A DNA stretch of 64,000 nt from an uncultured Nitrososphaeraceae archaeon. Its GTDB lineage: Archaea; Thermoproteota; Nitrososphaeria; Nitrososphaerales; Nitrososphaeraceae. The position numbers and the translations under genes are program-made. Under the pieces are notes generated by a model. That model did no database searches and was not told where the DNA came from. It worked only from the letters and a program-made list of their open reading frames with translations. This document shows, piece after piece, positions 58 to 52,635 of the stretch; position 1 is the first letter of the stretch, and each line of letters begins with the position of its first letter. Location of the stretch: the NCBI GenBank assembly GCA_963765895.1, contig CAVXZB010000019.1, positions 1 through 64,000 of the forward strand, given 5' to 3'.

Positions 58-1161
58 CTATGGAGTTCCGTATTTCCCTGATAGGTCAGTAAATGTCTCA
101 CCAACAGTAAGTGGTGGTATTACATGTATTGTTAAATTTGCCGGACCAGATATATAGCCAATTGTCGGATATTTTTTAGATACTTCAAACTCTGGATCTA
201 CAACTTGAGTTGCTTTTTCGACAGGAGCAGTGGAGGCAGCGCTGATAAGCGATGTGCTATATGTTGTTGCTATTAAGACTGAAGCCACAAACGGTATACT
301 GTATACTCCTACTGGTGTTTGTGGAGAAGTCTCTATTTTAAATAACGGAGGTTGAATTCTCTGGGCAGATACATGTAACCCGGTAGAACTGAAATTTGTG
401 AGCTTACTGAAAGTTATACTGGTAACATTATTAGAATAGGGCGTAGACATCTCAGCCGGAATCAACTGCGTTTCTCCTTGTCTTATCACTATATTCTTTG
501 GATGCGTTAATATGTCGATACCTGCGGGAGGAATAGCAACCCAACTTGTAAAATCTCTAACTTCATTTGATTTGTATGATTCTGCAGTATAAAATGATAA
601 GCCGTATCCAGTAGGATAGTTTAAAGAGCTCAGATCCAATCGTAGTCTAACATATCCTGGCCCTAACGTAGTCCCACCAAAAGGCATTGTATAGTTTATC
701 TTAGACTTTACAAGCGCAGAAGAACCTGATGATGATAATTGGTAAAGATATTCACTCCATTTCCCATCAACTGCTTCAATATAATAGTTGTAATTGGCTC
801 CGTTATATCCTGAAGTTGGAGGCAAGGAAACAATGGCAATAAGCATACCATACCTGATTTTTTTGAGTGGTTGACTATATGTAGAAGAATTTTCCAAATT
901 TGATTTTAACCAAAGTGTAGCATCTAGAGTTTTCCCATCACTAAGATAATCTACTGCCACTATGTTTGCATAGTCGGACTTTAAATGAGAGCTGTCATTA
1001 CCATAAGTTTGAACCCAATCATTTTTCTGATTTTTCATTTGTTCATCAGTTATGAAAATTTGATCAAATGCAGGAGATGCAGCAAAAGCATTGTGAAAAA
1101 AAGGATAGGAGAATAACAGAAATAATAATATAAAAACGATAACTATCGAAGTTAAGGGCAA
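58..1161 (-). CDS. Secreted/membrane-anchored hypothetical protein (Nitrososphaera-type expanded family), probably frameshifted near the C-terminal TM
   Basis: 367 aa ORF with signal peptide ending AFA-A; VDYLSDGKTLDATLWL-type motif; a hydrophobic continuation appears in another frame at the window edge. Confidence 0.6.
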   Translation of the reverse strand: MPLTSIVIVFILLFLLFSYPFFHNAFAASPAFDQIFITDEQMKNQKNDWVQTYGNDSSHLKSDYANIVAVDYLSDGKTLDATLWLKSNLENSSTYSQPLKKIRYGMLIAIVSLPPTSGYNGANYNYYIEAVDGKWSEYLYQLSSSGSSALVKSKINYTMPFGGTTLGPGYVRLRLDLSSLNYPTGYGLSFYTAESYKSNEVRDFTSWVAIPPAGIDILTHPKNIVIRQGETQLIPAEMSTPYSNNVTSITFSKLTNFSSTGLHVSAQRIQPPLFKIETSPQTPVGVYSIPFVASVLIATTYSTSLISAASTAPVEKATQVVDPEFEVSKKYPTIGYISGPANLTIHVIPPLTVGETFTDLSGKYGTP

Positions 1162-1646
1162 CGCAAATCCTCTATATGCCTAACCCTATCTGAAGTAGAT
1201 AAGGTTTTCATGTTTTGAGAGCCCAAAAGGGTGATGTACACTATATGAGAGAACATTTGTGCAAAGGAACGACAAAACAAATTGGACATCAGATGTATAG
1301 ACTGACAGTTCGATATACATGTAAGTTGAACAGGTAAGACTTCATGTGTGTATCAGTCATTGGCACGCGCTTATGCCGTTACTGTTCAATGTGCTGCTGC
1401 ACGCAAGCCGTTTGAACAGACCAGCTACTTACGCCACTTGATGTAAGCAACATGCTCTAGCGGCCGGCACTAAACCCCCAATTAAGCCTGCAGTGGCCAA
1501 GCCCGCAGTCCTAAAGTCTAGATTCCCCAGGCTCCTCACAATGGGACAGTCACATCAAGGCCAAGGGAAATTCATTGATTACAATACTGATACACAGAAA
1601 GTACCATCAGTATCCAAGCAGCTTAGAGTGCGATTGTATACGAAAT

Positions 1647-1973
1647 TTAACCACGTGGGATAGAGACTTTAAGAATATCACATGTTACTTTAGGCCCAGT
1701 TTCTATACACGCTCCGTAATACTGATTTGGTGGAAGTGCAGGCAGGTTATGTGTACGTTCGAGAAATTGGTCATGACATTCATCATGATCTGGACCGTAT
1801 GTACAGGGTCTATCTAAGCTGTCACCACCTATACCATTTTCTTGACATGAGTCGTCACAGTCTGTATCCGCCCGATTTGCCGATACACTTTGCGCTGATG
1901 GCACGCCTATCATTATTGTAGTGCCTAGCGACGCAACTAGCATCATTACAATTACACTTAAGATTATTTTCAT
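1647..1973 (-). CDS. Small secreted Cys-rich protein
   Basis: Start MKIILSVIV (ATG 1973), signal peptide, 6 Cys; shares QxYGxCxE..CDIL module with 3761..4411. Confidence 0.7.
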   Translation of the reverse strand: MKIILSVIVMMLVASLGTTIMIGVPSAQSVSANRADTDCDDSCQENGIGGDSLDRPCTYGPDHDECHDQFLERTHNLPALPPNQYYGACIETGPKVTCDILKVSIPRG

Positions 1974-1984
1974 TTTACTTGCAC

Positions 1985-2545
1985 CTAAGTGACTTGCCTC
2001 ACACACCAGTTTAGATCGTCTTCGGGATGGTCATGTATACAATAATCATATGCCCTTGCTTCTTGGTATATCCCACCGCTTAGATCATAAATAAGCTTAG
2101 GTATAGAGGGGGAGTAAGGGTCTATTACACTGTTCTGGCCACATGAATACATATTACGATAGCTAATGTGGACGCATGCCGTAGCAGCACTTGCATTCAA
2201 CTTATCTGACACCACGAAAAACCCTGCGTCTATTACACTATCATTTTTTAATGGTATTTCACTTTCCTTTACTGGATGACAGACGACCGGCTTGGGATTG
2301 GTATAATTAGGATTGAAATCCAAACATGCAGTAAGATTTGGGTTTACTAATTTAGCCCCTATGCCAGAGGGGTCTGTAGCCGACTGATATGTTCCAACTA
2401 AAAATAAGTGATATTTTGTCATACCCCTTGGAGAATATGAACTGCTTGCTGTCCAATACCCCTTACTTGCCATTACATTCGGTGCAATGGCCGAAATCAA
2501 TACGATGATGACAAGCGCACTAATTACTATTATTTTCATTCTCAT
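1985..2545 (-). CDS. Secreted Cys-rich protein
   Basis: Signal peptide; GFFVVSDKLN..AC..I.Y.N.Y.C module shared with 7483..7878. Confidence 0.7.
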   Translation of the reverse strand: MRMKIIVISALVIIVLISAIAPNVMASKGYWTASSSYSPRGMTKYHLFLVGTYQSATDPSGIGAKLVNPNLTACLDFNPNYTNPKPVVCHPVKESEIPLKNDSVIDAGFFVVSDKLNASAATACVHISYRNMYSCGQNSVIDPYSPSIPKLIYDLSGGIYQEARAYDYCIHDHPEDDLNWCVRQVT

Positions 2546-2550
2546 TTCCC

Positions 2551-2901
2551 CTAGTTCGCTGGCCCAAACTTACACGTATACTTATCTGTAACAGTTTGCC
2601 CTACCATCCAAACCGCCGAAGATGGACCATCACTACACCAAAAATCTGCTTCATCATCCATTGATGCGTTCGGTCCGACAATTGAACAGAATCCTAAGAC
2701 ATATCCATCGATGAACTCCGTCTGATTGATAAAACCATTAGGTGAATGCCATATATAGATATGACATTCTGGCTGACAAGGGTCTTTTGCATCAGCAACT
2801 CCATGATCATATCCAGGCAATATATCAGATATTGGATGTTTGGATAACGGAGCATGTGCAAGGCAGATGACAGTTAATAATGTGGTATGTATAAATTTCA
2901 A
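2551..2901 (-). CDS. Secreted Cys-rich paralog (HG..DAK..C..CH..GF.NQT.F..GY..GFC module), 5' end possibly truncated
   Basis: Clear paralogy with 3761..4411 and 4424..4822. Confidence 0.65.
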   Translation of the reverse strand: MKFIHTTLLTVICLAHAPLSKHPISDILPGYDHGVADAKDPCQPECHIYIWHSPNGFINQTEFIDGYVLGFCSIVGPNASMDDEADFWCSDGPSSAVWMVGQTVTDKYTCKFGPAN

Positions 2902-2922
2902 TGATTACCATACCATTGGCGA

Positions 2923-3549
2923 CTAGCCCAGAAATGGTCCCCCGCTAACGCCACCAGTGAATTTAGACGCTGTACCCTTCTTTTCAGTCCAATTATCGAT
3001 ACGTAGTTGATCTATTGGCGATTTATCTCCCTGTCGGTCAACGAAAGGTGTTCCATTTCCTAGCTGGCCTCGGTCTACTACTTGGGCCACCTGATTGCCT
3101 TCAAGATACAAGGTTACACGAACCGTGCCATCAGGTAGATTCTCCTTCGTACCCCTAAGATTATATGTTGAACCTGGCCGTAAATCAACATTCTCTGTTA
3201 CCTTTGTGTCTTTGAAATCCAGGTATTTTTTCTTATCACATGTGTTATATTCTTTCCCTATTCCGGTCTTGCCACCATTTATACCGAGATAGCCCTTGTA
3301 TCCCGCGACGCTTGAACAGCCATCACTATGCCGACCCCCCCCGAGTTGGAGAGTAGCTGTATCATTTGCCTTATAATCCGGCGGGATAGTGATTCTAACA
3401 TGAAAATCGGACGTAGCATCACCATTCCCCACGCCATATTGAAGACGATTGCACTTTTCAATCCCAGGACCACAGCCACTAGTATGCGTAGAAATTTCAT
3501 TTATGTCTGGACCATTTGGTTTGGATTTTCCAATTCTTGTGTTACTCAT
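2923..3549 (-). CDS. Hypothetical beta-sandwich (lectin/polysaccharide-lyase-like) protein
   Basis: 208 aa ORF; GGGRHSD and QLRIDNW motifs resemble AOA carbohydrate-binding-type proteins (recall, unverified). Confidence 0.5.
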   Translation of the reverse strand: MSNTRIGKSKPNGPDINEISTHTSGCGPGIEKCNRLQYGVGNGDATSDFHVRITIPPDYKANDTATLQLGGGRHSDGCSSVAGYKGYLGINGGKTGIGKEYNTCDKKKYLDFKDTKVTENVDLRPGSTYNLRGTKENLPDGTVRVTLYLEGNQVAQVVDRGQLGNGTPFVDRQGDKSPIDQLRIDNWTEKKGTASKFTGGVSGGPFLG

Positions 3550-3760
3550 GTCTATACTATAGTAAGTTCTATAGTAACAATATACTTATTCTTTTAAGAA
3601 GAAGATCCTGAAAAACTATACACCGTATTCTTCCGAGGCGTGATATTTACCAATTAAAGAGATCATAACTACCTTAAGTATATCATAATCGCTCTTGCAG
3701 ACGTATTGTTAATTGTCTTATGAAGTTGTTGAAATCATACCACCTGGTTATGGCAGCCGG

Positions 3761-4411
3761 CTAAGGAGTCCAAAAATCACTGCTGTTCATTGGTTTATAA
3801 CGCGCGTCCTGCGGACCTTTGTCACAATTAAATGAGGCCTGATCAACGACACTTCCAATACTTCCGAATTCGCTGTTGCTACAGAATCCCAAGCTATATC
3901 CTCTGACAAACTCCTGTGTCTGATTCATAAAGCCATTACCTCGCATACGTATCCACCAATGGCAGCCCTCGGGGTGATTGCAGCTAGCCTTTACATCGGC
4001 CTCTCCGTATTCAAGCCCAGATTGAAAATCTGCTTTTGGATTATCAGCTAATTTAAGATCATATAGACCTCCGGTAGTACTTCTGGTGTCGTTTAGAATA
4101 TCACATACAAGCCCTACACTTCTTTCTTCACATTCTCCATAATGTTGCCCTTTGAGTAGGTCAGGAAAGTCAGAAGTATCTTGGTCATCTGGGCCTGCAC
4201 AAGCCTTGAATCCTTGATGATATCCATTCATAAATTGTGCTGTATGATGACTTGCTTCATGTCCTATTGAATTGATATAGTTAGTACCTGGTAGTTTATC
4301 TGCGTCATTGCATCCGTGCTTATGTCCTAATTGATATTGAGTTAATGCAAAGGCACTTTGCGCGCCTATCATTAGGACTACTATTACAACTGCAATTAGC
4401 AAAGTTTTCAT
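3761..4411 (-). CDS. Secreted Cys-rich multi-module paralog
   Basis: Signal MKTLLIAVV..MIGAQSAFA; two HG..DA/GY..GF repeats plus a CDIL module. Confidence 0.75.
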   Translation of the reverse strand: MKTLLIAVVIVVLMIGAQSAFALTQYQLGHKHGCNDADKLPGTNYINSIGHEASHHTAQFMNGYHQGFKACAGPDDQDTSDFPDLLKGQHYGECEERSVGLVCDILNDTRSTTGGLYDLKLADNPKADFQSGLEYGEADVKASCNHPEGCHWWIRMRGNGFMNQTQEFVRGYSLGFCSNSEFGSIGSVVDQASFNCDKGPQDARYKPMNSSDFWTP

Positions 4412-9130: not shown

Positions 9131-9189
9131 CCACCTAACCCGCATCAAAGTTGTCTCTTTATTACCACCCGAGTTATTATAATAGGTAA
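9131..9189 (+). mobile_element. att-like site 1 (class A core plus right arm)
   Basis: CCACCTAACCCG..CAAAGTTGTCTCTTTATTACCACCC..TATAATAGGTAA, closely matching 20727-20786. Confidence 0.65.
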
Positions 9190-9414
9190 TTGAGTACACA
9201 ATCCGTAATTAGTCAGGGCCTAGAACTTACAAAGGAAGATCCATTATACGCGTTTATGTACGCATTGAAATCTTCTGAGGCAAGAAGACAGTACCCAAAA
9301 AGATTGAAAATGCTATTTGACTACCTTAAACTATCCGGTTCGATACAAGAACAGGCCAATGAATTTCTTAATAAGATAAAAGAGAGGGGTGTAATCAACT
9401 CTTTCCTCTTGTAA
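9190..9414 (+). pseudogene. Tyrosine integrase N-terminal stub
   Basis: DPLYAFMYALKSSEARRQYPKRLKMLFDYL matches the N-terminus of thaumarchaeal integrases; no catalytic domain follows. Confidence 0.75.
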
Positions 9415-9960: not shown

Positions 9961-11444
9961 TTAAGGTATGCTATGCCATGCTTTGTATGCATCCACTAAC
10001 CCATGTCCTGTGGCCGCGTCATATCCTGGCCCTGCTGACTCTCCAGTACCTGCTATCTCCAGTCACGACATCGCGTGCCGTTCCTTCAAGGATTAATTTG
10101 ATATCATTGGGATGCAGACTCGGTTTTTTCTCAAGTAGTAATGCTACTATTCCTGCGACCATTGGCGTCGCACTTGAAGTACCACTAGCACATAGCCAGC
10201 CATCGTTTCTTGGTGTTTCATCACCATCTGGAAAGTTTCCGCCTGAAAACTCACCATCTACAGTGCTATTTGGCATTGTAGGCATTGTTATATAGACGCC
10301 TTTTGGTGCTAGTCCTACTAATCCGCATATGTCTGGAACATGCCTTCCAGGATATATTGAGCTATCAAAGCTACTAGCATAGCTTGATGCTTGGAGGTTG
10401 AGGTTTTCGTCAAAATAAGCACCACCGACAGAAATTACTTCAGACATACTTCCAGGCCATGCTTTCATGCCATGGTTTCCAGCGGCAAAGAGGACTGTTA
10501 TGCCATTTGCAACTGCATTAGCTATTTCTATTTCTAAAGGTATCAATTCAGGCGGTAGTGTTGAAGAAGTATCTATATCGTATCCCCAACTGTTGGTAAT
10601 TATATTGGGCCTCCACCTAACTGCCAATTTAAAAGCAAGTGTCGGATTCGTACCTTGTTTTACAGATACAAACTTAACTCCTGGTGCTACTCCTAATGCA
10701 TTTGCAGATATTCCAGTGACCATGTCCGTATTCATCAGTATTAGGATCAATTCCTGGCTCTGGTACTGCAATTGTAGATATGTTGTAGCCGCGACTTGTA
10801 TAATATGGGTGAGCAGAATAAAATCCTGTATCTACCAACGCTAACTTGACACCTCTGCCCAATACACCTTCTGTATGAAGCTGATCTGCTTTCATAAGCA
10901 TAGGAACATCTGCAGCTGGGTGTAGACTAAAATATGTAGGATCAGGATGAGGTGGAAATGCAGATGTAAAAAATATTGGCTGTTCAGGAATAACAACACC
11001 TTCCACTAAATCTTTGATGTTATCTGGTGCATTGAGAATACTCTGATCTTCAGGTGCACCATAAAACGAAACTTTCTTTTTGCTTATTGCAGAATTAAAA
11101 AGTTGAACTGTTTTTAACTTTAACTGAGTCTGACAATGTTTCTCTACTAAATCCACTTTACCTCCTATAGAAATAGATGCGGCACCAACTGCCAAAACTT
11201 GGAAGCCATTATCTTTTAATCCTTTAATGGTCGCTCCCACATTATCCATAACAGGGAGATAGTCTCTTACATTTCTAGACAGTACCCACTCATCTCCTTC
11301 GAGTACCTTGAACTCCTTAGACATTGGACGAAGGGCGACTTCTGCAGAAACATAGTCTTCAGGCCTACCTGATAGTGTTGTAGTTGTTTTAGCCTTAGAT
11401 CCAGCACGATTTTTTTTTGCGCTTTCTTTTAGCCTTTTTCTCAT
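9961..11444 (-). pseudogene. S8 family serine protease (two frameshifts)
   Basis: Catalytic motifs LVDTG, DEYGHG, FAAGN, SGTSSATP; true C-terminus GYDAATGHGLVDAYKAWHSIP* ends at 9961. Confidence 0.85.
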
Positions 11445-11646: not shown

Positions 11647-11692
11647 TCAAATCCCTCGGGCCCGAATTAATCTTGTCCGCCTATTGGGGCCC
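11647..11692 (+). mobile_element. att-like site 2 (tRNA-like core TCAAATCCCTCGGGCCCG plus class C right arm)
   Basis: T-loop/acceptor-like sequence directly upstream of an integrase stub. Confidence 0.65.
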
Positions 11693-11708: not shown

Positions 11709-11930
11709 TTGTCTGAGACCATCATTGAGCAAGACCGAATGTCCTCATTTGTTTACGCTCTAAAAGCACCAATACAAAGAGGCTGTACCCTAAACGATTT
11801 GCATCCTTCCTAAGTTTTTTAGGTTATGAGGGCACTTTAGAAGGTCAAGCTAAACTGTTCCCAACAAACGCTAGAGAAAACGCTCAATAGGCAGAGGCTG
11901 AACTGATGAAATTCATATTATTCCAGAGGA
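11709..11930 (+). pseudogene. Tyrosine integrase N-terminal stub
   Basis: MSETIIEQDRMSSFVYALKAP/TKRLYPKRFASFLSFLGYEGTLEGQAKLF..ELMKFILFQ with a frameshift and a stop. Confidence 0.7.
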
Positions 11931-12181
11931 AATCAAATTACTCTAAGTTGATACGTTATTATTATTCGCATTGAACATCGAGTGTCCAGAAGTAATGTCG
12001 TTGGAACGTTATTGATATTTTCATCGTCCATGCTATTATTGAGTTTTAGGTAATAGCATATCCTATCCCACATCATTTGTTTTTAGAGTAAAAAATGACA
12101 CGATATAACATCTTTAACAACCTGCTTCATATGATTTAGAGCCATATTACACCATGGTGTATCCGTGTCATTATTATACCC

Positions 12182-12559
12182 GTGGGTGGCAAAATTGAGT
12201 CAAATTTGGTTCCCATTCCACCGAACCCGGACCAACGACATAGAGTAAGCTTTGAAGTTACCGGAAAGCAGTATAGTGATCTAATAAAATGGGAGAGGTC
12301 AATTGAAGATCGTTTATTTCGATATCAGGTAGAGACAGGAAAGATGTGGCCTGGAAGCGATGATGTAGTATGTGAATCAATCTTAGAAACATTCAGAGTA
12401 ATTGCCAAAGAAGGTGGAGACAATATTAGACCATATTACGGTGCAATTGGAGGAGCCTATATCTACAAATTCTGTCCTACTTCATTGGGTTTAATAACTA
12501 AAGTAGAAAATTCAGTTACACATGAAGAAATTGATCTAACTCAGTATGGAACATGGTAG
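12182..12559 (+). CDS. Hypothetical protein (phage-like GAIGGAYxYxFxPTSLG motif); 5' end read through the att-like site
   Basis: 125 aa ORF with a globular C-terminal motif. Confidence 0.5.
   Translation: MGGKIESNLVPIPPNPDQRHRVSFEVTGKQYSDLIKWERSIEDRLFRYQVETGKMWPGSDDVVCESILETFRVIAKEGGDNIRPYYGAIGGAYIYKFCPTSLGLITKVENSVTHEEIDLTQYGTW
12184..12236 (+). mobile_element. att-like site 3 (class A left arm plus core)
   Basis: GGGTGGCAAAATTGAGTCAAATTTGG..CCACCGAACCCGGACCAAC resembles 20693-20746. Confidence 0.6.
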
Positions 12560-15182: not shown

Positions 15183-15243
15183 CCAAACCCCCTTGGGCCC
15201 ATACTGATATCAGTCCTTAAATTGGGTTCTACCTAAAATAGGT
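15183..15243 (+). mobile_element. att-like site 4 (class B core plus right arm)
   Basis: CCAAACCCCCTTGGGCCC-ATACT-GATATCAGTCCTTAAATTGGGTTCTA; homologous to 51608-51660. Confidence 0.7.
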
Positions 15244-15691
15244 ATGTCCAATGAGATGATATCAGTTATACAAAAACAACAAAAAGTGGCAGGAGCGGAG
15301 ACAGAAGCAGAAGGACGAGTTTTCAACCAACGGTTTCAACATAATTATTTTGCTGAGTTAGAAACAACTTCATACTCACTGTTTGTGCTTGCTATGAGAT
15401 CCCCCCCAGACAAAACAGAAATACCCTCAGAGATTTGGATATTTTCTTGACTTTGCTCAGGTTGCAACAGAGATAGAAAAAATAACCTCAGTTGAGACGC
15501 GTTGTAATATGTTAGCTGATTTAGCAAAAAGCGACCACAAATGGCTTGTTAGTTGTATATTCAATTATCTCCAGTTGCTCAAGGCCAGAGTGGAATCTAA
15601 GGAAATTAAGGCTTCTACTCTTAGAAACAACGTCAAACCCATAAAGTTGTTCTTCGAGCAAATATCTAAAGACTATGGACGCTTTATCTAG
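15244..15691 (+). pseudogene. Tyrosine integrase N-terminal stub
   Basis: SYSLFVLAMRSP.. and WLVSCIFNYLQLLKARVESKEIKASTLRNNVKPIKLFFEQ; frameshifted and truncated. Confidence 0.75.
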
Positions 15692-20692: not shown

Positions 20693-20786
20693 GGGTGACA
20701 AAAATGAGTCAAATTTGTCTCGGATTCCACCGGGCCCGTACCAAACTTGTCCCTTTATTACCACCCATTCTGTTATAATAGGTAAT
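20693..20786 (+). mobile_element. att-like site 5, complete class A (left arm, core, right arm)
   Basis: GGGTGACAAAAATGAGTCAAATTTG / CCACCGGGCCCG / CCAAACTTGTCCCTTTATTACCACCC; the arms are imperfect inverted repeats. Confidence 0.7.
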
Positions 20787-21386: not shown

Positions 21387-22578
21387 TCAATATTTCTTTA
21401 AATGATGAATACTTTTCGGATTGTTTATTGAACTTCTCAAGCGCTTTTCCATCAGGTACCTAACCTCTTCTTTTTTCAACTCTTTATAGTGCCTTAGAAT
21501 CTCTACCCTCTTATCGTCGTCTTTTACTAATTCTAAAAAAGTATTCCACTCCCGTCTAAACTTCAAAGCCTGAACAACTATTGATTCCTTAATGGGTTTG
21601 TCAAAGACAGATTTTGCCAGAATTATAGTATTAATGAATGTTTTTACCTGTCTTGGGTTCAACTCAACTCCTTTTTTAATTAGCCCTTTATTATTTTCAA
21701 ACTCTTCAACAAGATCAGAGCCTTGGAGATCTTCTGATATTATATGGCTTATGAATCTGGTTATATCTTGCTCTATCCAAGTTGGTATTTGGAACGGAAG
21801 TTGAACAATCTTCTGCAAATAGTCCAACCCTTTGATATCAGATTCCTCACCATATTTCTTTCTAACTAAAGAATTTATGGTATCCGAGTCCATACCTATA
21901 ACATATACAATTCCTTCGATATCAAAGAAACTCTTCATTGATTCTAGAACTTCTAAAGCTCTATCAGGGGTGCATCTATCTAAATCATCTATAAACACAA
22001 CAATTCTATAGCTTTTATCATCTTTTCTTGCCTCATCTAATCCCTTGCCAAGGAATTCTGTCACATGATAATAAATTGCTTTTTTTATCGTCAGCAACTG
22101 AACCATCTCCTTTCAGTTGATTAGTAAGCTTTTCGAAGTCCACTTCTGCGCTTGCACCTTTGATACCGTATGTAATTTTAGTTGATGCGATAAATGCGGC
22201 TGCAGTGCGCTTTACGCCATTTTTGAAACCATTCCATCTTTTTTCTTTCGCTTTTTTTGATGCGTCTAATGTTAGTTTAACAGTTCTGAGAAATGGGATT
22301 ACCGCAAGGTTTTCTTCCCTTTCATATCTCCAAGCATCAAACCAGACTGTTAAGACTATCTCATTTTCATCAAGAATTTTTTTTGTCATTCGCATCAATG
22401 ATGTCTTTCCAGTTCCCCATCCGCCAAAAATTCCAATAGCGAATCTTGGCGTAGAATTTATTATTATATTTGCTAGTTTCTGGCTATAATCGTTAAAGTC
22501 GAGCGCGTCTTCTGCGGTTGGCTCGTCAGTGATTATCTTTATTACATCAGACTTGGAACCTTTGTCGTTGTGCGACAA
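21387..22578 (-). pseudogene. KAP family P-loop NTPase (frameshift in the homopolymer at ~22085)
   Basis: Walker A GGWGTGKT, WFDAWRYE, Walker B VVFIDDLDRC, YLQKIVQLPF, NPRQVK. Confidence 0.85.
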
Positions 22579-22940: not shown

Positions 22941-23123
22941 TTATGACACATACGATAATTCTTTCCGCTCAAATTCCTGTATTCTTGATGATAAAGCCAT
23001 GACTTGGTCTGATAGCTGTGCTATAGCATCATGTTTCATTTTGCCACGATTTCTCAACGATTGATTTAGTTCTTCTATCTCCTCTCCCTTGGTCTGTATA
23101 TCTGCTCCCTGTCTTTCTAGCAA
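22941..23123 (-). pseudogene. C-terminal coiled-coil tail of a thaumarchaeal integrase
   Basis: EELNQSLR..KHDAIAQLSDQVMALSSRIQEFE resembles integrase tails (recall). Confidence 0.5.
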
Positions 23124-24041: not shown

Positions 24042-24083
24042 TAGGAACCAATTTTAACACCGATATCTGTTCAAACCCCCTTG
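24042..24083 (+). mobile_element. att-like site 6 (class B left arm plus core)
   Basis: TAGGAACCAATTTTAACACCGATATC-TGTTCAAACCCCCTTG. Confidence 0.65.
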
Positions 24084-25715: not shown

Positions 25716-25762
25716 TAGGAACCAATTTTAGCATCGATATCTGTCCGAACCCCCTTGGGCCC
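25716..25762 (+). mobile_element. att-like site 7 (class B left arm plus core)
   Basis: TAGGAACCAATTTTAGCATCGATATC-TGTCCGAACCCCCTTGGGCCC. Confidence 0.7.
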
Positions 25763-26020
25763 AAATCGATCTTGTTTAGTCTCTTACACTGATAGGACTA
25801 AACTCAGCTGTGGTAAATTCTTTGTTCTTACAAAATAATTTAGTAGAACAAAGGAACATTTTATATGACTTTATCAACGTGAAGAACTTGTTAAAAGAGC
25901 TTATACGTTTTGTTTATATAAGTAGGCGCAAAACCTTGCGGCCTCTGGCTTAAATGCAGAGGCTAAGCAAGGATCATGTGCAGTTAACCGCTGATCGGCT
26001 CTTTCAAGCGTGAATATATA

Positions 26021-26185: not shown

Positions 26186-26267
26186 GAATAAAGACCTTTG
26201 GCCGGTCGGCACACGCTAGTTGAATATGATGCAATATTTAGGCCTACTATAAGGTGCTCACAAATTG

Positions 26268-26430
26268 ATATCTATAGATAGTAGCAATTGATGGATGTGA
26301 ACCAATATATTTAATTCAATCTATAGCCAAGTCTTAACACATCGGACAGTATCGGATTTTGACATGTCCCGTGTAATTATATCGGAAACACTGTCTTATA
26401 ATACAGATGTGCGGCGCGCCAGATTATAAA
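26268..26430 (+). repeat. ~165-bp dispersed repeat, copy 1
   Basis: GTAGCAATTGATGGATGTGAACCAATATATTTAATTCA..GCCAGATTATAAA also at 31088-31256. Confidence 0.85.
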
Positions 26431-30849: not shown

Positions 30850-31087
30850 ACACAACAATTACCAACATGTGCTGTGTGCGAACTAAGAGATTTGTGGGTT
30901 TCAGGACAAGTGTAATATATATCTAGAGTCAATAGAGCAGTAGAAAGTACAATGATCTTGCGAAACATAAATTAGAACTATTAATATTGTCCAAACTTAC
31001 TCATGACTAGCTGGTTTTATTGATAGGTAAAACTGTCAGTCAGACTTGATAAACACATAAACAAAATCTGTCGACGATACAAATTAT

Positions 31088-31256
31088 GATATCTATAAGT
31101 AGTAGCAATTGATGGATGTGAACCAATATATTTAATTCAGTCTATAGCCAGTAAGTCTTAATACATCATACAGTATCGGATTCTTGAAACACCCAGAATA
31201 ATTATATCGGAAACAAGCCTTCTAGTACAGTTGTGCGGTGCCGCCAGATTATAAAC
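31088..31256 (+). repeat. ~165-bp dispersed repeat, copy 2
   Basis: Matches 26268-26430. Confidence 0.85.
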
Positions 31257-35279: not shown

Positions 35280-36136
35280 CTACACTCGAGGCAAAACGTG
35301 CTCGCACAGGCGCTCCATCTGGGCCTCTTCGTCGAAGACAGGGTTTAACAGAATATAGTTCACGCCCGCGTCTCTAAGGCGGATAATTTGGTCTACAATC
35401 TGCTGTGGCGATCCCCATACCGCAACTTGATCTGCCATTTCTGGCTTATGGTAAAAGGCACCGAACCACTCCCGCAGGCGGGATAGATTGTCTCCCAGGG
35501 CCAAATACAACCGCTTTGCTTTCGGAAAGTCGGCGGGCAGCTGTTTGATGTCTTCCAAAAAAGCATCCATCGGTGTCGAGCCCGCGCCGATGTAGCCGTC
35601 TCCCACTCCACCGCACGACGCAGCGCGACCTCGACATGTCCGCCGAACCAGATTGGGGGATGCGGCCTCTGGACTGGTTTCGGCTGCATCGGAATACTCT
35701 CAAGATGTGAGAAACGACCATCGAGTGTTACTTTGTCTTCTGTCCAGAGCCGCTTCATAATCTCCAGATTTTCGCGGAAGCGAGTGACGCGGCCCTCGGG
35801 CGGCAGTCCGTAAGCGGGATAGTGCCGGGTACTTGCGCCAAGTCCGACACCAACAATTAGGCGCCCGTCCGAAAGCACGTCAAGCGATGACAAGGCTTTC
35901 GCCAGGTCAATGGGGTTCCGCTGAGCGATCAGCAAAACGGCGATTCCGAGACGCAAACGTTTCGTGACTGCGGCCGCATATGTCAAGGTCGTCACGGACT
36001 CAAGAACAGGAGCAGTCCCGATAACTTGCTCAATGCACCATGCCGCAATCAATGGCAACTCTTCTGCTCGTCTCAAGAACCGCTGAATACGAGCAGGATC
36101 GGAATACGTTTGAGGAATAGCGATTGCGAACTCCAT
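35280..36136 (-). pseudogene. LLM-class flavin/F420-dependent oxidoreductase (one frameshift)
   Basis: RLGIAVL..NPIDLAKALSSLDVLSDGRLIVGVGLG, PKPVQRPHPPIWFGG; markedly higher GC than the flanks. Confidence 0.85.
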
Positions 36137-36755: not shown

Positions 36756-37707
36756 GGCTATGTAGAAAACATCATCAATATTACAAGATTAGTTAGTCTA
36801 TGCATATTGTAGGTTATGCATCTGAATGATAGTTCCCTGTTTTGTGTCCTAGTTAATCTAGACATTATATGCTCTCCAAACAGTCTCTTTATGACTGAGA
36901 CTATGGTTTCATCCTTGTTATGGTGATTGTATAGTATTTTGGAATAACCGTGCTTCATCTGCTTCCTATACACACCATGTGTTCTCCATATAGGTACATG
37001 TTCATATCGAGCTGGAATTATGCTTAATGCATGCAAGCCGTCTCTTATCAAGAAATGATTGTCTTCACTATCATATCCCTTATCAGCTGTAACTACAGAT
37101 AATGGTAGAATTTCGGCTATTCTTGTTATGATTGGCCTGAAATCCATATTATCATGTCTTGTTGGAGCTCGTCTTATTTTGATTGAACATATGATTTGTT
37201 GTAATACATCTGCTCCAATAGATAATTTAGCATATTTTCTTCTCAATCCTGTTCGCTCAGTATAATATTGTGAAGCAGGAGTCATCTTAAATCCAGTAGA
37301 ATCTATTCCTGCAAAGATATGCTCGGTACCGCTTATTACAATGAATGAGGAAATTATCTTTTCCAGTAAGGTATTGCTAATTCTGCCTGCAAACTTTTGC
37401 AATGTTGTAAAATGAGGAATTTGTGATAGTCCTAAAAATAATCTAAGGTAATGCGCTTCAACCAGCCATTCGATAAACATCCTATAACTCTTACCTTCGT
37501 ACTGTCTTATTGTGAGCAATACTAAATGCTGCCACATCGTAAAGACATGGTTGCTCTTTCTATGAAGAAACAACGGTATCCTTGAATTTCTCAAGACACG
37601 GTACATAGTGCATGCCAATCTAACATATCTTGATTCTTTCAATATCCATATACGATCATACATCTAGAAAGCTCTAATGGTATTCAGAACATGGTTTCTA
37701 CAAAGCC
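36756..37707 (-). mobile_element. IS5-family insertion sequence
   Basis: TIR GGCTATGTAGAAA / TTTCTACAAAGCC; TSD CGTAAAAGT at 36747-36755 and 37708-37716. Confidence 0.9.
36758..37663 (-). CDS. IS5-family DDE transposase
   Basis: IDSTG, ADKGYDSE, ET..SVIKR.FG motifs. Confidence 0.9.
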   Translation of the reverse strand: MYDRIWILKESRYVRLACTMYRVLRNSRIPLFLHRKSNHVFTMWQHLVLLTIRQYEGKSYRMFIEWLVEAHYLRLFLGLSQIPHFTTLQKFAGRISNTLLEKIISSFIVISGTEHIFAGIDSTGFKMTPASQYYTERTGLRRKYAKLSIGADVLQQIICSIKIRRAPTRHDNMDFRPIITRIAEILPLSVVTADKGYDSEDNHFLIRDGLHALSIIPARYEHVPIWRTHGVYRKQMKHGYSKILYNHHNKDETIVSVIKRLFGEHIMSRLTRTQNRELSFRCITYNMHRLTNLVILMMFST

Positions 37708-39091: not shown

Positions 39092-39938
39092 CTATTTGTC
39101 GACTCCTTTAGTTGCATTTAGAATTAATTGGGCGACTTCCTTTGGGTGAGATAGAAGCGAGAGATGACTAGAGGGAAGTGAGATAGTGGTAGCGTTCATC
39201 TGTTTTGCAAATAAACGTTCGACAGCAGGAGCGATATTGCGATCGTTTTCAGATACTTGATACCATGTCGGAAGTTGCTTCCAAGCTGGTGGGCCAGATT
39301 TTTCAGTAAAAATTGACATGTTAATTGGCTTTTGTGTAACGGCTAAGATCTTAGCTTGAGCCGGATCAATATCTGGAAATGAAGTATGGAACATATTCGG
39401 ATTAAAGTATGCAAAGCCCCCTCTATCAATGATTAGAGATCCTTTTGGAAATTTGGTGGGGTCGGTGAAGCTACTGATAGATTGACCTTCTTTAGGAACT
39501 AATGCAGCAATGTAGACGAGACCTTTGACATTGGGATTATTATAAGGCAGCGTTTGAGATTACCATTCCACCATATGAGTGCCCTACAAGAATAGTTGGT
39601 CCACCCAATAGATCAATTGCACGCTTTACTGTAGCTACGTCATCTGCCAGAGAATGAAGAGGAAGCTGTACTGCGATAACTTTATGTCCTGCTTTTAGTA
39701 GAATTGGGATTACTTTACTCCATGAAGATGCATCAGCTCCTGCACCATGAACTAAAACGATATTGATTTTAGTAGCATTTGTTATCTGGCCCTTTATTTC
39801 ATTAGGTTTTGTGAATGTTGTCATGTTCTGCGCATTTGCAAGACCAGCTTGTGTAGATAATGTAAGAGTTACAATAAGCATCACGGCTAGACATAGTGCG
39901 CCTAAAAGGTTTATCTGACTGTATTTTTCATATTGCAT
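39092..39938 (-). pseudogene. Secreted alpha/beta hydrolase (frameshift ~39540)
   Basis: VLVHGA, GHSYGG nucleophile elbow, PAWKQLPTWY, SSH motifs. Confidence 0.85.
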
Positions 39939-40414
39939 AAATCTTTATTCATTATCTATTGTATTTAAATTGGACAGTTACCAATAGGTAAGCAAATTTT
40001 TTCACTTACTTATGGCTAGCGGATCCTATTGATAGGTAAAACTATCTGATTGGTGATGAATTTAATATCTGTTGACTCCCAATTAATGACGCCATTGGAT
40101 AGTAGCAGCTAGTCGATGTGAATCAACATACTAATTCCGTTAATATGCAATAAGTTTAAAACATAGGACAACATTTGGACTTTTTAACGCATCCGGCATA
40201 ATTATCTCGAAAAGCGTTATAATCTGATAGGCGGCAACCCGATGATAAATATTATCAAAAATGCTGCGTCCTAGGTATAGACTGACGTCCCAGGACGGTG
40301 AAACATTAGTATGATATTTTAGTCTATTTGTCGTCATACACATGCCAATTTCTTGCTACATTGTTAAGAACTAAATCCTGTATTGTACCTTGAATGTAAG
40401 GGATATACTACAAG

Positions 40415-41362
40415 GGCTGTGTAGAAACCATCTCATACAGTCAAAGCTTTGTAAGAGTATAATACCAATAGTCTATTGAAAGAATCAATGTACGTCAGAC
40501 TTGCAGGTACTATGTTCCGTGTTTTGAAGCATGCAAGGATTCCTCTATTTTCTAACAGGAAAAGTAATCACATATTTACAATATGGCAGCACATAGTTCT
40601 AGTTGCTATACGACAGTATGAAGGTAAGAGTTATAGAATGTTTGTCGAGTGGTTAATTGAAGCCTATTACCTAAGGTCATTTCTACGGTTGTCACGTATT
40701 CCTCATTTTACAACATTGCAAAAGTTTACAGATAGAATCAATAATTCATTGCTTGAAAAGATAATTTCGTCATTCATTGTAATTAGTGGTACCAAGCATA
40801 TCTTTGCAGGAATAGATTCAACAGGATTTAAGATAACTCATGCATCACAATATTATACTGATCGAACAGAATTGAGAAGAAAATATGCGAAATTATCTAT
40901 TGGAGTAGATGTATTACAACAAATCATATGTACAATTAAGATAAGACGAGCTCCAACAAGGCATGATAATGTAGATTTCAGGCCAATTATAACAAGGACA
41001 TCAAATATTCTTCCATTATCTGTAGTTACAGCTGATAAGGGTTACGATAGTGAAGATAATCACCTTCTCGTAAGAGAGGACTTACATGCATTCAGTATTA
41101 TTCCTGCTCGATATGAACATGTACCGATGTGGAGAACACATGGTAAGTACAGAAAGCAGATGAAGCGTGGTTACTCCAAATTGCTGTACAATCAACGAAA
41201 CAAAGATGAAACCATAATATCAGTTATAAAACGACTATTTGGAGAGAATCTTATGTCTAGATTGACTAGAATGCAGAACAGAGAGTTATCATTTAGATGT
41301 ATCACCTACAATATGCATAGACTGACTAATCTTGTAATATTGATGATGTTTTCTACATAGCC
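40415..41362 (+). mobile_element. IS5-family insertion sequence
   Basis: TIR GGCTGTGTAGAAA / TTTCTACATAGCC; TSD ACTACAAG at 40407-40414 and 41363-41370. Confidence 0.9.
40476..41360 (+). CDS. IS5-family DDE transposase
   Basis: Close paralog of 36758..37663 with intact DDE motifs. Confidence 0.9.
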   Translation: MKESMYVRLAGTMFRVLKHARIPLFSNRKSNHIFTIWQHIVLVAIRQYEGKSYRMFVEWLIEAYYLRSFLRLSRIPHFTTLQKFTDRINNSLLEKIISSFIVISGTKHIFAGIDSTGFKITHASQYYTDRTELRRKYAKLSIGVDVLQQIICTIKIRRAPTRHDNVDFRPIITRTSNILPLSVVTADKGYDSEDNHLLVREDLHAFSIIPARYEHVPMWRTHGKYRKQMKRGYSKLLYNQRNKDETIISVIKRLFGENLMSRLTRMQNRELSFRCITYNMHRLTNLVILMMFST

Positions 41363-46307: not shown

Positions 46308-47867
46308 TGTTAGTTAGTTTACTGGACTCCTATTTGATAAAGACGTCATTTTTCTTGCTTACCTCTTATCACTAGTATGGCTGCGGATTACCACGGCCTG
46401 CTTAGCCACAGAATGTATGACAGCCTTTGTGCAGATGGGTAAATTGCTTGATAAGGTAGATCGTATATTATTAGTATAGAGAGGGGGACCGAACACGCAT
46501 GACTATGACTAAGTCTAAGCACACCTCCTTATTTTAGTGTTCCAAGTGTCAGAAGAATTATCTGTCCAGACACTATGTAGTTAGACATTTCAAGGAAAGT
46601 CATACTGATACTATGAATGAGGGTCTTAAATTAAGCGCCTATTACTCAAGGATTCCAATTTCTGCTGGAGAGCAACGTTACTAGCTAAATCTAACAAGTG
46701 GCTAGCGAATATAAAGAACAGCAGCTGTTTCGCTGTAAGCTATGTCACCAACTTAGAAAAGGGAGAGAATGGATCAGTCATCTAGACTCAACGCATAGGA
46801 TTCGTATAGATCTCTTACAAAAATGCCAAGAGACCGGTCAGATACTCATTCAAATTACATCGGGAGATTGAATTAAAAAATGATTAGCAAAAACAGCATC
46901 AATAACGACAGTAGCAATAGCAATTTAATAGAGTTTACATTGAGGGAACTAGGGATAATACAAAGCGCAGTATTTCTGAGATCATATTGAGGACGAGGTT
47001 TCACACCTGACACAGGATCTAGTGTCTACATTGGATCGGGCCAACGCGTTGCTGAAGGACCAGTGACGAGTATAATAATATCTCGATGATACGGTGTACG
47101 ATGCCATCTTTCATTTGACTATAAGATACAGGAGGCAAAATTAGACATAGACGGCAGAATTTGATACTAGTAGCAAATATTTAGGTACCAATAGCAAAGC
47201 CATCCCCAGAGCTAGTATAAAGGGCAATTATATCCATTGGGATAACGATATACTCCCACTAGTAAAGGAGCAGTATGATATTGCCACAAGGGAGAGAATA
47301 CCTCTAACACTCATAGGTCTTCTATACATATTTGAATTACAAGTCCTAAGAGTTATTCGTACCAGAGGATACACGAAAGCGTATAATGATAAACAGCACC
47401 GACAACAATAGCAATACCAGCGCTGACAAAGATAATAGGAAGCTAAATTCCTGGCCGCCTCGCCTATTCTAGTCTGGGGCTGGATACCATTACTCTTGTC
47501 AACAAGTAACAGCAACAACAACGGCAACGGCTCAATACCACATAATAATATAGAAGACATGGATAAGATGATCAATGCGATGGATCTAGTACTCAAGCAT
47601 TACAAAGACAATGAGGAAGAGCTAGCGATATCGGACCTAGCAAAGTACGTAACCGCTTTGCTCAGATTCAATACCTTCCTGTTTCCTGCAATAGACAAAC
47701 TGATCATGCTTCAGGAAAAGGGCAGCAATAGCGATAGAACTACAACGAGACACAGCAGAGATGATCAAACGATACAGTAGTTTCTATAGTTAGAACGACA
47801 TAATATAAAACAGGTAAGTAGATAACAATGACAATATCAAACCCAAAATTTAAGGTAACTAAACCCC

Positions 47868-48095
<228 letters not shown>

Positions 48096-49032
48096 AATAA
48101 CAGCTAAACCAGCAAAGACAATCGATATTAAAGTGAATTACCCTATCGAACAACTAAGCGCTAGTTATTACCTTCATTATTTTATTTATTTTATTTTATC
48201 TTATCTTATTTTAATTTATGAATGACAACGGCAACTTATTTAACGTTTTTTAGCCTTAGGAACACAAGGGAGCGCTGGTGCCCCATCGCTACTATACATA
48301 TGAACAAGGACTCAACTCCAACAGTATCGTCCGTAGTAGCCAGTTGAACGAAGTCGACAGGGGCACCACACCCCGCCACTATACCTTTACGTCATCAGTT
48401 AGTGATGACAGTCAGATTGGAGTGGCATAGTAGAAATACGCAATCGAGTATATAGTATTGTTAGCTGTTAGTTATAGGTTAATTTTCTATATGTCAGATA
48501 TAGTAGAATCAAATAGTGAGTGAGTCAGTTAGTTAGTTAGTTAATTAGTTAGTTATAAGAGGTACAAAGCATATCTGTCTATAGGACACATGTATTTAAA
48601 TTATTAACTAATTTACATGGGTCTGGAAAGCGTTCACCTACGAGCAGGAGAACCTATAATTAAACAATGAAATATGGGTTCGGACAGATTATGTAGGTTG
48701 GTAACAATCTTAGCGTATCTTACAGGATATTGCAAGATATTAAGGTATATTATTGGACCCAATTAATTAGGTTAAAGAAAGTAGTTCAGTTACGTGTGTG
48801 GCGATAGCGCTTAAGGGGTTGGCATTCAAGCAACCAGTTAAGGGCTCAGTCTTTTTCGGACTTATAGCCCACTTACCAACCAAATGGGCCTCAGAACATG
48901 TAAGCCATCAATCAATCAAGTGCTTACTTATGGGACCATTTCTAAACCGACACTCGTAGCTAACTTACCTGCATAGGAGGCTAAATCTACCTATAAAAAA
49001 ATATATTATATACTCTAGGTTTTAGTGCATAC

Positions 49033-50560
49033 GTGAAACGAATCTTCTTTCTCTTCACTGTATTACTAATCACCGCGGTCATGGCATTGCTTAGTTCTAC
49101 GCTATTTCTTATCTCCCAATCTGCGAGAGGAGAGCAAGCCTCCAGGAGCTATTGCTTCTCCTGATATACCTGTTAGTCATCATGACCGCGTTTATACGGC
49201 TGATCAATTCTCAAACACTATATCTGTGACAGATCCGGTAGACAACAAGCTTCAGGGCGTCATCCGCCTCGGAGACCCGCTACCAGGCAATCTGAGCCCA
49301 CTTTATCATGGGCAACTGCTGGTACATGGAATGGGCTCCTCGCCTGATCATCACACCATCGTAGTAGTCTCGATTGGCTCTAATTCAGTAGCTTTCATCG
49401 ACACTGCTACCAATGCCATAAAACACATAACCTATGTCGGGCGCTCACCACATGAAGCCCTCGTTACTCCAGACGGTAAGGAGATTTGGGTGACCGTCCG
49501 TGGTGAGAACTATATCTCAGTTCTTAATGGTACTACATATCAAGAGAAGACACGTATCATCGTGACCAAACGGTCCAGGTATGCAGATTTTTTCGCCTGA
49601 TGAGAAATATGGTTATGTCTGCTCTTCAGTTACTCCTCAGACAGTTGTAATCACGGTCGCTGATCACAAAATTGTCGGACGGGTACCTCAGCTCAGCGGG
49701 TTCAGTCCAAACATTGCGGTGACACCAGATGGCAAGCAGATCTGGTTCACGTTAAAGGATATTGGCAAGACAGAGGTGTTTGATGCCCGTCCACCTTTCT
49801 CCATCTTGAAAACCATCAACACAGGTCCGATTACCAATCATGTCAACATAGCTCACAAGGCAAAAGGCACTTTTGCCTACGTCACAGTCGGCGGGCTCAA
49901 CGAGGTACAGGTCTTTCGCACAGATGACTTCTCCAAAATCGCAACCATTCCGGTCGGTAAACTGCCGCATGCGATCTGACCGTCTGGCGATGGAACACTT
50001 GTCTACGTTGGACTTGAGAATGAGGACCGTCTCGTTGCAATCAATACGCTGACTAACAAGATGATTGCAAGCAGTTCAACTGGCCAAGGGCCTCAGGCTA
50101 TAACGTATGTACCAAATGCTGTGTCGAACGGTTCTGGAACTCAGCGACTGCAGCCGCTTGGCATAGCTGGAAATGTCACTCATCTATCTCTTGTTGCCGC
50201 CACCAGCACCAATCCATGGCAGGGCCATCATCAATAATGATACTAACGCACCCACCAGCATATCGTTATTTGATCAGGGATTGGTACAAGTGCCTGCAGG
50301 CCGCAGTTACTGGACTTGAACCCAAATATGCCTATGTGCTCGCTCTCTCACTTAATCCCAATGGCACTGGTGCCCTTGAACCCCTGCAGCAGTTCATAAC
50401 CAACCCTGCTGGATCTGCTATCGTTAACACAGTAGGTCCTATCCGACAAATAGTGCAGGACACCGTACCACCAAGATACCTCGTCATAGTTCCTGGCATC
50501 ACTAAACAGCACGGTGCTCCTGTTCAGATCCAGCTAGGTAATGGACGTTCGGTTGAGTAA
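49033..50560 (+). pseudogene. YncE/YVTN beta-propeller secreted protein (frameshifts and a TGA in place of Trp)
   Basis: HDRVYTADQFSNT, YVGRSPHEA, TGPITNHVN, AYVTVGG motifs. Confidence 0.85.
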
Positions 50561-50573
50561 TGGATGTTGATTA

Positions 50574-50699
<126 letters not shown>

Positions 50700-50731
50700 G
50701 GCTGTATATAGCTGATTATATTATGTTGTGT

Positions 50732-51142: not shown

Positions 51143-51582
51143 AAAATTCTACAATACAGAGTGGTATATAAGGTTCTTTAAAATTGGTAGAAAACATATG
51201 CGCTTAAAGAAAAATAATCTCTTAATAGTAATATTTAGTTCGGTTAGTTCACATCAGTATGAAGAATAAGTCAAGTTTCGATCCTATCGGGAAAATGTCA
51301 GAAAAAGTGTCTCATAACTAATGTTATGGAATATATCATACAGTAGTATGCATAACCCAGTTCTGATATGGAGCTTTTTGCAAATCTTATGGAACCAAGA
51401 GTTATCTGCGTACTTCGTTTATCATCCTCTCTAGCACTGTGACGGCCATCCATCCCAGCATACGAGGTCGAGTAAGTGAGAAAGCATTGCGACCCCATTC
51501 AACGAGATCGTTCTGAACGCAGGCAGTAGACTAGCCCTAATCGTAGTTGGAGACGCCATCGTTCAATGGATAGTTAGATAAT

Positions 51583-51660
51583 GGGCCCTTAATTGGGTCA
51601 AATTTGATTCACACACCCCTGGGCCAATACTGATATCACCCTTAAATTGGGTTGTACATA
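51583..51660 (+). mobile_element. att-like site 8 (class C left arm, degenerate core, class B right arm)
   Basis: GGGCCCTTAATTGGGTCAAATTTG..ACCCCTGGGCC-AATACTGATATCACCCTTAAATTGGGTTGTA. Confidence 0.65.
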
Positions 51661-52542: not shown

Positions 52543-52635
52543 GGGCCCATGATAAATGTCAAATTTAGTTCACAAACCACTGGCCCCCACTACGATATCA
52601 GTGCTTTTATGTGGATTCCTAAGTATAATAGGCGA
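52543..52635 (+). mobile_element. att-like site 9 (class C left arm, degenerate core, B-like right arm)
   Basis: GGGCCCATGATAAATGTCAAATTT-AGTTCACAAACCACTGGCCCC-ACTACGATATCAGTGC..TATAATAGG. Confidence 0.55.

Follow-up and report, generated by a model that had tools for sequence, protein, structure and literature searches.

Mirrored arms flank the short cores of tRNA-targeting integrase elements in Nitrososphaerales

Results

Nine sites in a 64-kb stretch of archaeal DNA

The DNA studied here, which we call the window, consists of the first 64 kb of contig C19 (CAVXZB010000019.1) in the genome of an uncultured Nitrososphaeraceae archaeon (4.9 Mb in 88 contigs). Nine sites, labeled a-i, are found in it, each with a short core accompanied by a left arm, a right arm or both (Table 1). 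The arms were sorted into types, referred to as T1 and T2, by similarity to a reference arm, so that the figures for arm conservation are partly circular. Weight matrices for scanning the window were trained on right arms from other genomes only, with 29 distinct arms for T1 and 10 for T2. All nine sequence strings quoted in the original prediction, which had been made from the letters alone, were found where it had placed them.

Table 1. Positions of the nine sites and of the integrase remnants in the window.
Feature	Position	Strand	Remarks
Site a, core	9131-9142	+	degenerate tRNA 3' end (T-stem 3' strand, acceptor 3' strand, discriminator)
Site a, right (P') arm, T1	9143-9170	+	matrix 28.8 bits; AT box 9158-9164, probable integrase TATA box
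Integrase N-terminal remnant after site a	9190-9414	+	74-aa ORF, TTG start 48 nt past core
Site b	core 11653-11664; T1 right arm 11665-11692	+	GGGCC-type outer box; matrix 17.3 bits; class C right arm of the original prediction
Integrase N-terminal remnant after site b	11735-11932	+	tblastn, 33% identity to residues 30-95 of C14 integrase, E 5.8e-9
Site c, attR-type	T1 left (P) arm 12184-12211; linker about 8 nt; core 12218-12229	+	7.3 bits on - strand, corrected p 0.0007
Site d	core 15188-15201; T2 right arm 15202-15229	+	matrix 12.2 bits
Integrase N-terminal remnant after site d	15404-15658	+	tblastn to residues 41-119 of C14 integrase, E 9.5e-11
Site e, attP-like P-O-P'	T1 left arm 20693-20720; core 20727-20738; T1 right arm 20739-20766	+	matrix 34.2 bits
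Site f	T2 left arm about 24044-24071; truncated core 24074-24083	+	arm at 24042-24067 in the original prediction
Site g	T2 left arm about 25718-25745; core 25750-25763	+	arm at 25716-25741 in the original prediction
Site h, hybrid	51582-51655; T1 left arm 51582-51609; degenerate core 51616-51626; T2-like right arm	+	repeat family D7
Site i, hybrid	52543-52617; T1 left arm 52543-52570; core 52577-52589; T2 right arm 52590-52617	+	matrix 38.0 bits

The core of site a recurs with the same arm in three relatives (L009, L042 and L044), where an intact, intron-bearing tRNA lies upstream. The degenerate cores of sites a and c have 6 nt exactly in common, or 14 nt when one mismatch is allowed. An 18-nt stretch at 15184-15201, which includes the core of site d, is an exact match to the 3' end of a tRNA-Met gene (C64:125586-125603). 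ARAGORN found no tRNA gene in the 64-kb window and Rfam gave no match there, showing that the cores are neither live tRNA genes nor known RNAs.

There is no intact integrase in the window, and none of its 97 ORFs of at least 75 aa had a Pfam integrase match. Translation of the DNA past the right arms, both in the window and at sister copies in the rest of the genome, yielded pieces of a tyrosine recombinase. When intact genomic copies were used as tblastn queries, integrase remnants were detected directly downstream of the right arms of sites a, b and d. Past site a, positions 9226-9393 match residues 25-76 of the C14 integrase, and the TTG at 9190 is the only possible start codon. The remnant found behind site d recurs in the DNA past site h (family D8, 84% identity). 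Neither translation nor tblastn produced an integrase match downstream of site e, and from its sequence the integrase of this site appears to have been deleted just past the promoter region.

Several other features were noted in the window. Split genes appear as adjacent ORFs at 10022-11444, 21390-22578, 35283-36136, 39095-39938, 54043-54957 and 61646-62559, encoding a subtilase, a KAP P-loop NTPase, a luciferase-like monooxygenase, an alpha/beta hydrolase, a metallo-beta-lactamase fold protein and an HflX-like GTPase; they reflect either a pseudogene-rich region or frameshift errors in the assembly. Two DDE_Tnp_1 transposase genes are present at 36761-37663 (-) and 40476-41357 (+), together with three copies of a 64-nt repeat (26266-26329, 31087-31150 and 40087-40150), two of them 95% alike and the third 61%, one copy being near a transposase gene. 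These genes and repeats look like IS copies or IS ends. Two arrays of a tandem repeat with an 8-nt period (family D1, 40 registers) lie about 2.5 kb apart, at 47842-48155 and about 50506-50700.

The sites are junctions of tRNA-targeting integrase elements

The complete layout is preserved in other genomes, where a tRNA gene, often intron-bearing, is followed by the right arm and then by an integrase of 400-450 aa on the same strand. We examined 110 related loci, of which the core was callable in 95; one with a wrongly called core was dropped, and 93 were scored for an upstream tRNA T-arm with a pattern of our own. A T-arm was found directly upstream of the core in 74 of these 93 loci. The aligned intact integrases retain the R...HxxR...H...Y catalytic residues, and the C14 integrase (434 aa) matched Pfam PF00589 with an E-value of 6.6e-5 and 23.2 bits, under the 27.1 cut-off. 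Five elements (C78, C19_308k, L108, G020C15 and G027C9) have a real tRNA at attL and an exact repeat of 12-14 nt at attR. Judging from the intact layout in the relatives, the right and left arms are the P' and P arms of the element, which remain in attL and attR, respectively. The original prediction, which had taken the sites for att sites with symmetric arms, was supported in that they are att junctions of integrase-borne elements, and the arms are mirror images that belong to the element (P and P') and not to the host.

The sequences further suggest how the sites arose. Sites h and i appear to join the end of a T1 element to the start of a T2 element, and site e looks like a P-O-P' junction of the kind made by tandem insertions. 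The window as a whole would then be a gene-poor, pseudogene-rich graveyard of tandem insertions of at least two element types, which fits both its many split genes and the arrays described in the main text of a study of Thaumarchaeota (PMC6563490).

In G000, an intact tRNA-Met gene followed by a 400-aa integrase occupies C64:125530-126899; the integrase is about 30% identical to the family studied here, and the right flank is unrelated. Because this tRNA-Met has the same core as sites d and g, the window may represent the continuation of an array beginning at that tRNA on another contig.

Other elements and left flanks were also noted. A minimal element of 3.6 kb was seen in G027 (C9, oriented stretch 354-3979), between a tRNA and a 12-nt repeat; it contains the integrase (402 aa), a convergent 70-aa gene for a NikA-like ribbon-helix-helix protein and a few ORFs. 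A second integrase family, of 407 aa and with 43.8 bits against PF00589, occurs at G000 C18:69-1402, C59:40776-41690 and C26:558-1460, convergent to a T1 left arm and core with about 40 conserved nt between. A C-terminal remnant of this C18-type integrase is present in the window at 22959-23120 (-), with no recognizable att site beside it. Another kind of left flank, seen before tRNA-type cores at G000 C16:6835-6900 and C38:79488-79560, in L090 and L094, and at the second core copy of G017 C12, consists of a AAAGCTAAATA-like box, about 12 nt, and a small CCC..GGG hairpin-like motif with TACATG; this AAAGCTAAATA-box flank probably represents the P arm in a different family of elements with the same tRNA targets. 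A third type has the palindrome ATACACTAGTGTAT directly before a tRNA-Lys-type core (G000 C38:173521-173560, G005 C25 and C16, and L112).

Two other explanations of the sites were rejected. The left arm and core are not halves of split, permuted or intron-bearing tRNAs, since the DNA upstream of the T-loop part lacks T-stem pairing and intact tRNAs in relatives carry the same cores. Nor are the sites MITEs with terminal inverted repeats, since half sites stand alone and always lie beside a tRNA-like core and an integrase gene.

The arms form an inverted repeat

The arms were compared as inverted repeats by counting how many of 2000 dinucleotide shuffles reached the observed score. The original prediction had sorted them into three classes of inverted repeats. 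Its classes A and B were well beyond chance: the score was reached by 10 shuffles for the two arms of site e and by 1 for the left arm of c against the right arm of a, and by 2 and 1, respectively, for the left arms of f and g against the right arm of d. Class C was weak as paired, the left arms of h and i against the right arm of b being equaled by 64 and 14 shuffles. The cores had also been described as bracketed by the arms. This is true of site e, where a matching pair of T1 arms flanks the core and which is attP-like as had been supposed; all other sites are half sites or have unmatched arms. When the left and right flanks of the same site were compared, no repeat was seen at sites h, i and g, with 1563, 1862 and 1918 of 2000 shuffles reaching the score.

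The + strand of the window was then scanned with the matrices from other genomes. The T1 matrix found the right arms of a, b and e, and the T2 matrix those of d and i, with 0.10 and 0.25 hits of at least 12 bits, respectively, expected per shuffled window. On the - strand, the left arms of c, e, h and i appeared in the T1 tail only (corrected p 0.0005-0.0017) and those of f and g in the T2 tail only (corrected p 0.011-0.018). Against the right-arm matrix the left arms score only -2 to 9 bits and are degenerate copies.

To extend the comparison beyond the window, we assembled 12 pairs of attL and attR, or P-O-P' sites, drawing on the same genome, on public loci and on relatives sampled as 40-kb stretches (win_e, win_a_c, win_d_g, win_d_f, C78, C19_308k, L108, G020C15, G027C9, G017C12, L094 and G008C33). 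Among 80 public loci, a search for attR as exact repeats of at least 12 nt within 10 kb gave credible results only for L094 and L108. The 40-kb stretches around 11 integrases of relatives contained a second core copy in six cases, five of which were used as pairs. The pairs are partly dependent, since win_d_g and win_d_f have the same right arm (d) and win_e and win_a_c are near relatives, leaving about seven lineages. Eight of the 12 pairs, the first eight of those named, had a significant inverted repeat, with 0-6 of 1000 shuffles reaching the score (0 for win_a_c). The gapped score was not significant for the other four: G027C9 (155 of 1000), G017C12 (140), L094 (557) and G008C33 (944). L094 is a hybrid junction, and G008C33 and G017C12 have the most distant integrases (about 38-42% identity). 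The flanks on the host side, B against B', scored at background (4-7) wherever they were independent of the arms. Mirrored arms therefore extend well beyond the window, into other Nitrososphaerales genomes.

The arms are mirrored about a fixed axis

For each pair, every possible axis was tried, and complementary positions were counted from 9 to 37 nt out on both sides. The best axis fell 9.0 nt before the end of the core in eight pairs and at 9.5 nt in L108, which has two one-base gaps, making nine of the 12 pairs in total. At the best axis, 15-21 of the 29 positions were complementary, compared with 12-16 for the runners-up. The three pairs without a repeat had other centers, at a background level of 13-14 of 29; the best axis of G027C9 was nevertheless 9.0. 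At site e, the axis lies between 20729 and 20730, and 19 of the 29 arm positions are complementary at center 9.0.

The core ends at the discriminator, in agreement with the ARAGORN tRNA end in C78, which places the axis between tRNA positions 64 and 65, 9 nt upstream of where the discriminator ends. Five pairs have a real tRNA, and in these attL and attR are identical for 12-14 nt counted from the discriminator, so that the block of identity starts 3-5 nt to the left of the axis. This is the position expected if an exchange region of 6-8 bp were centered on the axis, in which case the remaining identity would serve only to restore the tRNA end. G008C33 and G017C12 have longer blocks of identity, of 18 and 21 nt, and these, together with the missing repeat and the distant integrases, suggest a different crossover in the two. 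With about seven lineages, the fixed axis could be inherited rather than selected. The 8-12 bp beside the axis are not symmetric, and the arms start 9.5 bp from it, which is far out for a single Cre-like monomer.

The arm type follows the integrase clade

The three classes of the original prediction reduce to two types in the window. Classes A and C, which differ mainly in the outer box, are both T1, with a TTTATT-like AT box in common and an inner box built on CAAA.TTG (GTCAAATTTG in the left-arm form). Class B does stand apart as T2, its inner box being based on GATATC. Further arm types, T3 among them, exist in other genomes.

When all left arms were scored against all right arms, the matrix was block-shaped, with 6-14 for T1-T1 and 7-16 for T2-T2 combinations, and mostly 4-8, with one 9, between types. 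The original prediction had suggested testing left and right arms for covariation; their types do match, but a pair from the same element is not clearly better than one from different elements. The symmetry is therefore that of a consensus common to both arms and does not represent free compensation. In other genomes, an inverted T2 arm at the exact mirror register was found in three of 19 loci without an upstream tRNA (best 18.3 bits) and in none of the 74 with one.

A quick maximum-likelihood IQ-TREE search was made with 79 integrases, leaving out 14 loci without an ORF of at least 330 aa. A T2 clade of 21 rows and a T1/T3 clade of 49 rows were both strongly supported. The arm type tracks the integrase clade, as originally predicted, with 14 label changes on the tree compared with 38.9 for shuffled labels and none of 200 shuffles as low, a tie that linkage alone would predict because the arm adjoins the gene. 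Distinct 13-nt cores numbered 18 with T1 arms and seven with T2 arms, five of them common to both, and the arm type thus follows the clade of the integrase independently of the tRNA target. Arms were still recognizable between integrases only about 45-58% identical.

The right arm overlaps the probable integrase promoter

The first possible start codon of the integrase lies at a median of 49.5 nt past the core and is mostly limited by an in-frame stop located at +40 to +53. The center of the AT box, at positions 16-22 of the arm, is at a median of 30.5 nt upstream of the start codon (IQR 24-38.5; 44 loci). In archaea, TATA boxes have their centers about 26-27 nt upstream of the transcript start, and leaderless mRNAs are frequent. 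Taken with this spacing, the distance between the AT box and the start suggests that the P' arm probably contains the TATA box of the integrase.

Promoter function by itself could account for the conservation of the right arm. If so, the right arm would be kept as the BRE/TATA of the integrase, and the left arm would be a decaying inverted duplicate or an outward promoter, neither having a role in recombination. Such an explanation is in keeping with the distance of the AT box from a start that an in-frame stop bounds in most loci, the resemblance of the arm AT boxes to boxes upstream of the tRNA genes of the same loci, and a left arm that is much weaker than the right. It leaves unexplained why the left arm is kept in exact mirror register at one tRNA position in nine of the 12 pairs, and why the mirroring takes in the inner and outer boxes in addition to the AT box. 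No consistent leftward ORF was seen beside the left arm at 11 sites, of which four had no ORF of at least 30 aa within 200 nt and one had a start near the mirrored position, and the left arm is accordingly not, in general, the promoter of a leftward gene. We consider a promoter role alone to be unlikely.

The integrase model and the neighboring genes

An AlphaFold model of the integrase (mean pLDDT 79.7) was disordered at residues 1-26, with helices from residue 30. The body was predicted to consist of a helical core-binding domain and a catalytic domain, with a single long C-terminal helix at residues 363-432. Foldseek ranked archaeal XerA best, followed by IntI, Cre, XerH and the Tn1549 integrase, and an integrase profile run against the sequences of solved structures returned nothing at E 0.01 or better. 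The original prediction had proposed that the arms are bound by the N-domain of the integrase. This proposal was not supported, since the predicted body is Xer/Cre-like and two-domain, with no separate arm-binding domain. In the absence of a lambda-type domain from the model, any contact between integrase and arm would be made through the Xer/Cre-like body, perhaps by extra protomers.

This predicted lack of an arm-binding domain is also what might be expected if the arms were bound by something other than the integrase, namely a DNA-bending protein of the element or host, such as a ribbon-helix-helix protein, a directionality factor, or TBP at both AT boxes. The inner boxes are short and palindrome-like, for example TCAAATTTGA and GATATC, and the 3.6-kb G027 element carries the NikA-like ribbon-helix-helix gene and little else besides its integrase. 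A winged-helix accessory protein was proposed, in the text of the report, to bind the P and P' arms of SNJ2 (PMC5861418). We nevertheless found no conserved neighbor gene: among 132 small ORFs within 700 nt after the integrase gene, only two passed the Pfam cut-off, one NikA-like ribbon-helix-helix and one VapB-like, with one further match below it, and none of the 132 matched a MarR-like family. A separate arm-binding factor is, in our estimate, distinctly improbable.

Site e had also been compared to integron attC, as a fold-back site. On such a reading, the two arms would pair with each other on a single DNA or RNA strand, and the resulting hairpin would serve as the substrate for recombination or as a regulatory RNA. 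Folded as RNA, the - strand of site e, the only one to stand out and then only mildly, does form a full-length hairpin (-24.3 kcal/mol, z -1.96, equaled by 6 of 200 shuffles), and all five of its transition mismatches become wobble (G.U) pairs on that strand, at this site only; but as single-stranded DNA site e does not exceed the shuffles in stability (z -0.25 on both strands; 71 and 80 of 200), wobble pairs are not enriched over the nine pairs, where the mismatches are near random (13 G.T, 24 A.C and 58 of 95 other), both arms hold the consensus of their type with no free compensation, the arms are kilobases apart once integrated, and the core, which has to recombine with a double-stranded attB, would sit in the loop and not in the stem. 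The attC-like reading is not supported, and we regard folding of this kind as very improbable.

Discussion

The evidence leans, in our view, towards the nine sites being junctions of successively integrated, largely decayed elements at tRNA 3' ends: attL-type where a core is followed by a right arm, attR-type where a left arm precedes a core, and attP-like where both arms are present. These elements would belong to one family of Nitrososphaerales tyrosine integrases, with the mirrored arms acting as sites for the recombination machinery. The original prediction of element-borne, mirrored and lineage-linked arms was thus right in outline and is partly supported.

On this junction model, the attP of the free element would be a near-palindrome of about 75-80 bp. 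Its P and P' arms, of 28 bp each and made up of inner, AT and outer boxes, would enclose a spacer of 20-28 bp with the tRNA-identical core of 12-14 nt inside. Strand exchange would be centered on the mirror axis, and the arms would be bound as double-stranded DNA by the recombination machinery, most likely by the integrase, whose gene is the only one invariably linked to them. The P' arm would also hold the TATA box of a leaderless integrase mRNA, and occupancy of the arm would then couple recombination to expression of the integrase.

A more speculative extension, which we put forward as doubtful, is that an integrase without an arm-binding domain builds a directional intasome on the near-palindromic attP of 75-80 bp. 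The symmetric arms, with a TATA-like box about 28 bp from the crossover, would either bring in extra integrase protomers by way of the 70-residue C-terminal helix or recruit TBP to bend the DNA, and the recombination state would directly switch the integrase promoter. If true, a directional intasome on symmetric arms would represent a third route to directionality, beside heterobivalent integrases and the topological filters imposed by accessory sites.

The junctions are a variant of known tRNA-targeting att junctions. Krupovic et al. (2019; PMC6563490) described integrated elements of thaumarchaea, 39 of them in tRNA genes, whose att repeats have a median of 17 bp and go down to 8. As reported in the main text of that study, those elements are like the present ones in having a tyrosine recombinase, in using the 3' parts of tRNAs, including intron-bearing ones, in their short att sites, and in the re-use of sites that leads to arrays; a term search of the same main text found no description of mirrored P and P' arms or of a fixed axis, both of which are present here. 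A 2021 review of archaeal tyrosine recombinases mentions inverted repeats, in the text available to us, only for dif and tRNA stems. A literature search joining Nitrososphaera-type names, integrase and attP retrieved one general review only.

In its site layout, the SNJ2 module of haloarchaeal pleolipoviruses is similar, with a 14 bp core at the 3' end of a tRNA and conserved P and P' flanks (PMC5861418). According to the text of that report, SNJ2 needs the co-transcribed Orf2 and Orf3, whereas no such genes are conserved here within 700 nt after the integrase; symmetry of the arms was not found in the parts of the report covered, while the arms described here are mirrored (PMC5861418).

The likeness to Cre/loxP and Xer/dif lies in the predicted two-domain fold of the integrase and in a dyad around a short exchange region. 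In loxP, repeats of 11-13 bp directly flank a spacer of 6-8 bp. In contrast to loxP and dif, the DNA next to the axis is here asymmetric tRNA sequence, and the partner attB has no arms. The spacing differs as well, since the 11-13 bp repeats of dif, as given in the text of PMC8371274, abut a 6-8 bp spacer, whereas the present arms extend from about 9.5 to about 37 bp from the axis.

Heterobivalent integrases carry a separate N-terminal arm-binding domain, and none is seen in the model of the integrase studied here. The arm sites of such integrases are not known to form a simple mirror pair. The attP sites of this group (lambda, P2, mv4 and the Tn916 family) are otherwise like the present ones in having arms of the element around a short core, and the attB of mv4, in the source text covered, is likewise a bare core at a tRNA 3' end. 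Integron attC is similar in being an imperfect inverted repeat and in overall length. Its active form is a folded single strand in which the crossover takes place within the stem. Here, by contrast, the core lies between the arms in a 24-nt spacer, the fold of the single-stranded DNA is not stable, and the sequence of the arms is conserved by type.

In ammonia-oxidizing archaea, the very short att repeats (PMC6563490) make integrated elements difficult to delimit. An arm of 28 bp beside the core, with a mirrored arm at a fixed register, is a much stronger signature of an element, and it can be used to locate element ends, solo scars and tandem arrays. The axis between tRNA positions 64 and 65 provides a testable prediction of where this family of integrases cuts. 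Finally, the overlap of the P' arm with a probable TATA box suggests a simple link between recombination and the expression of the integrase.
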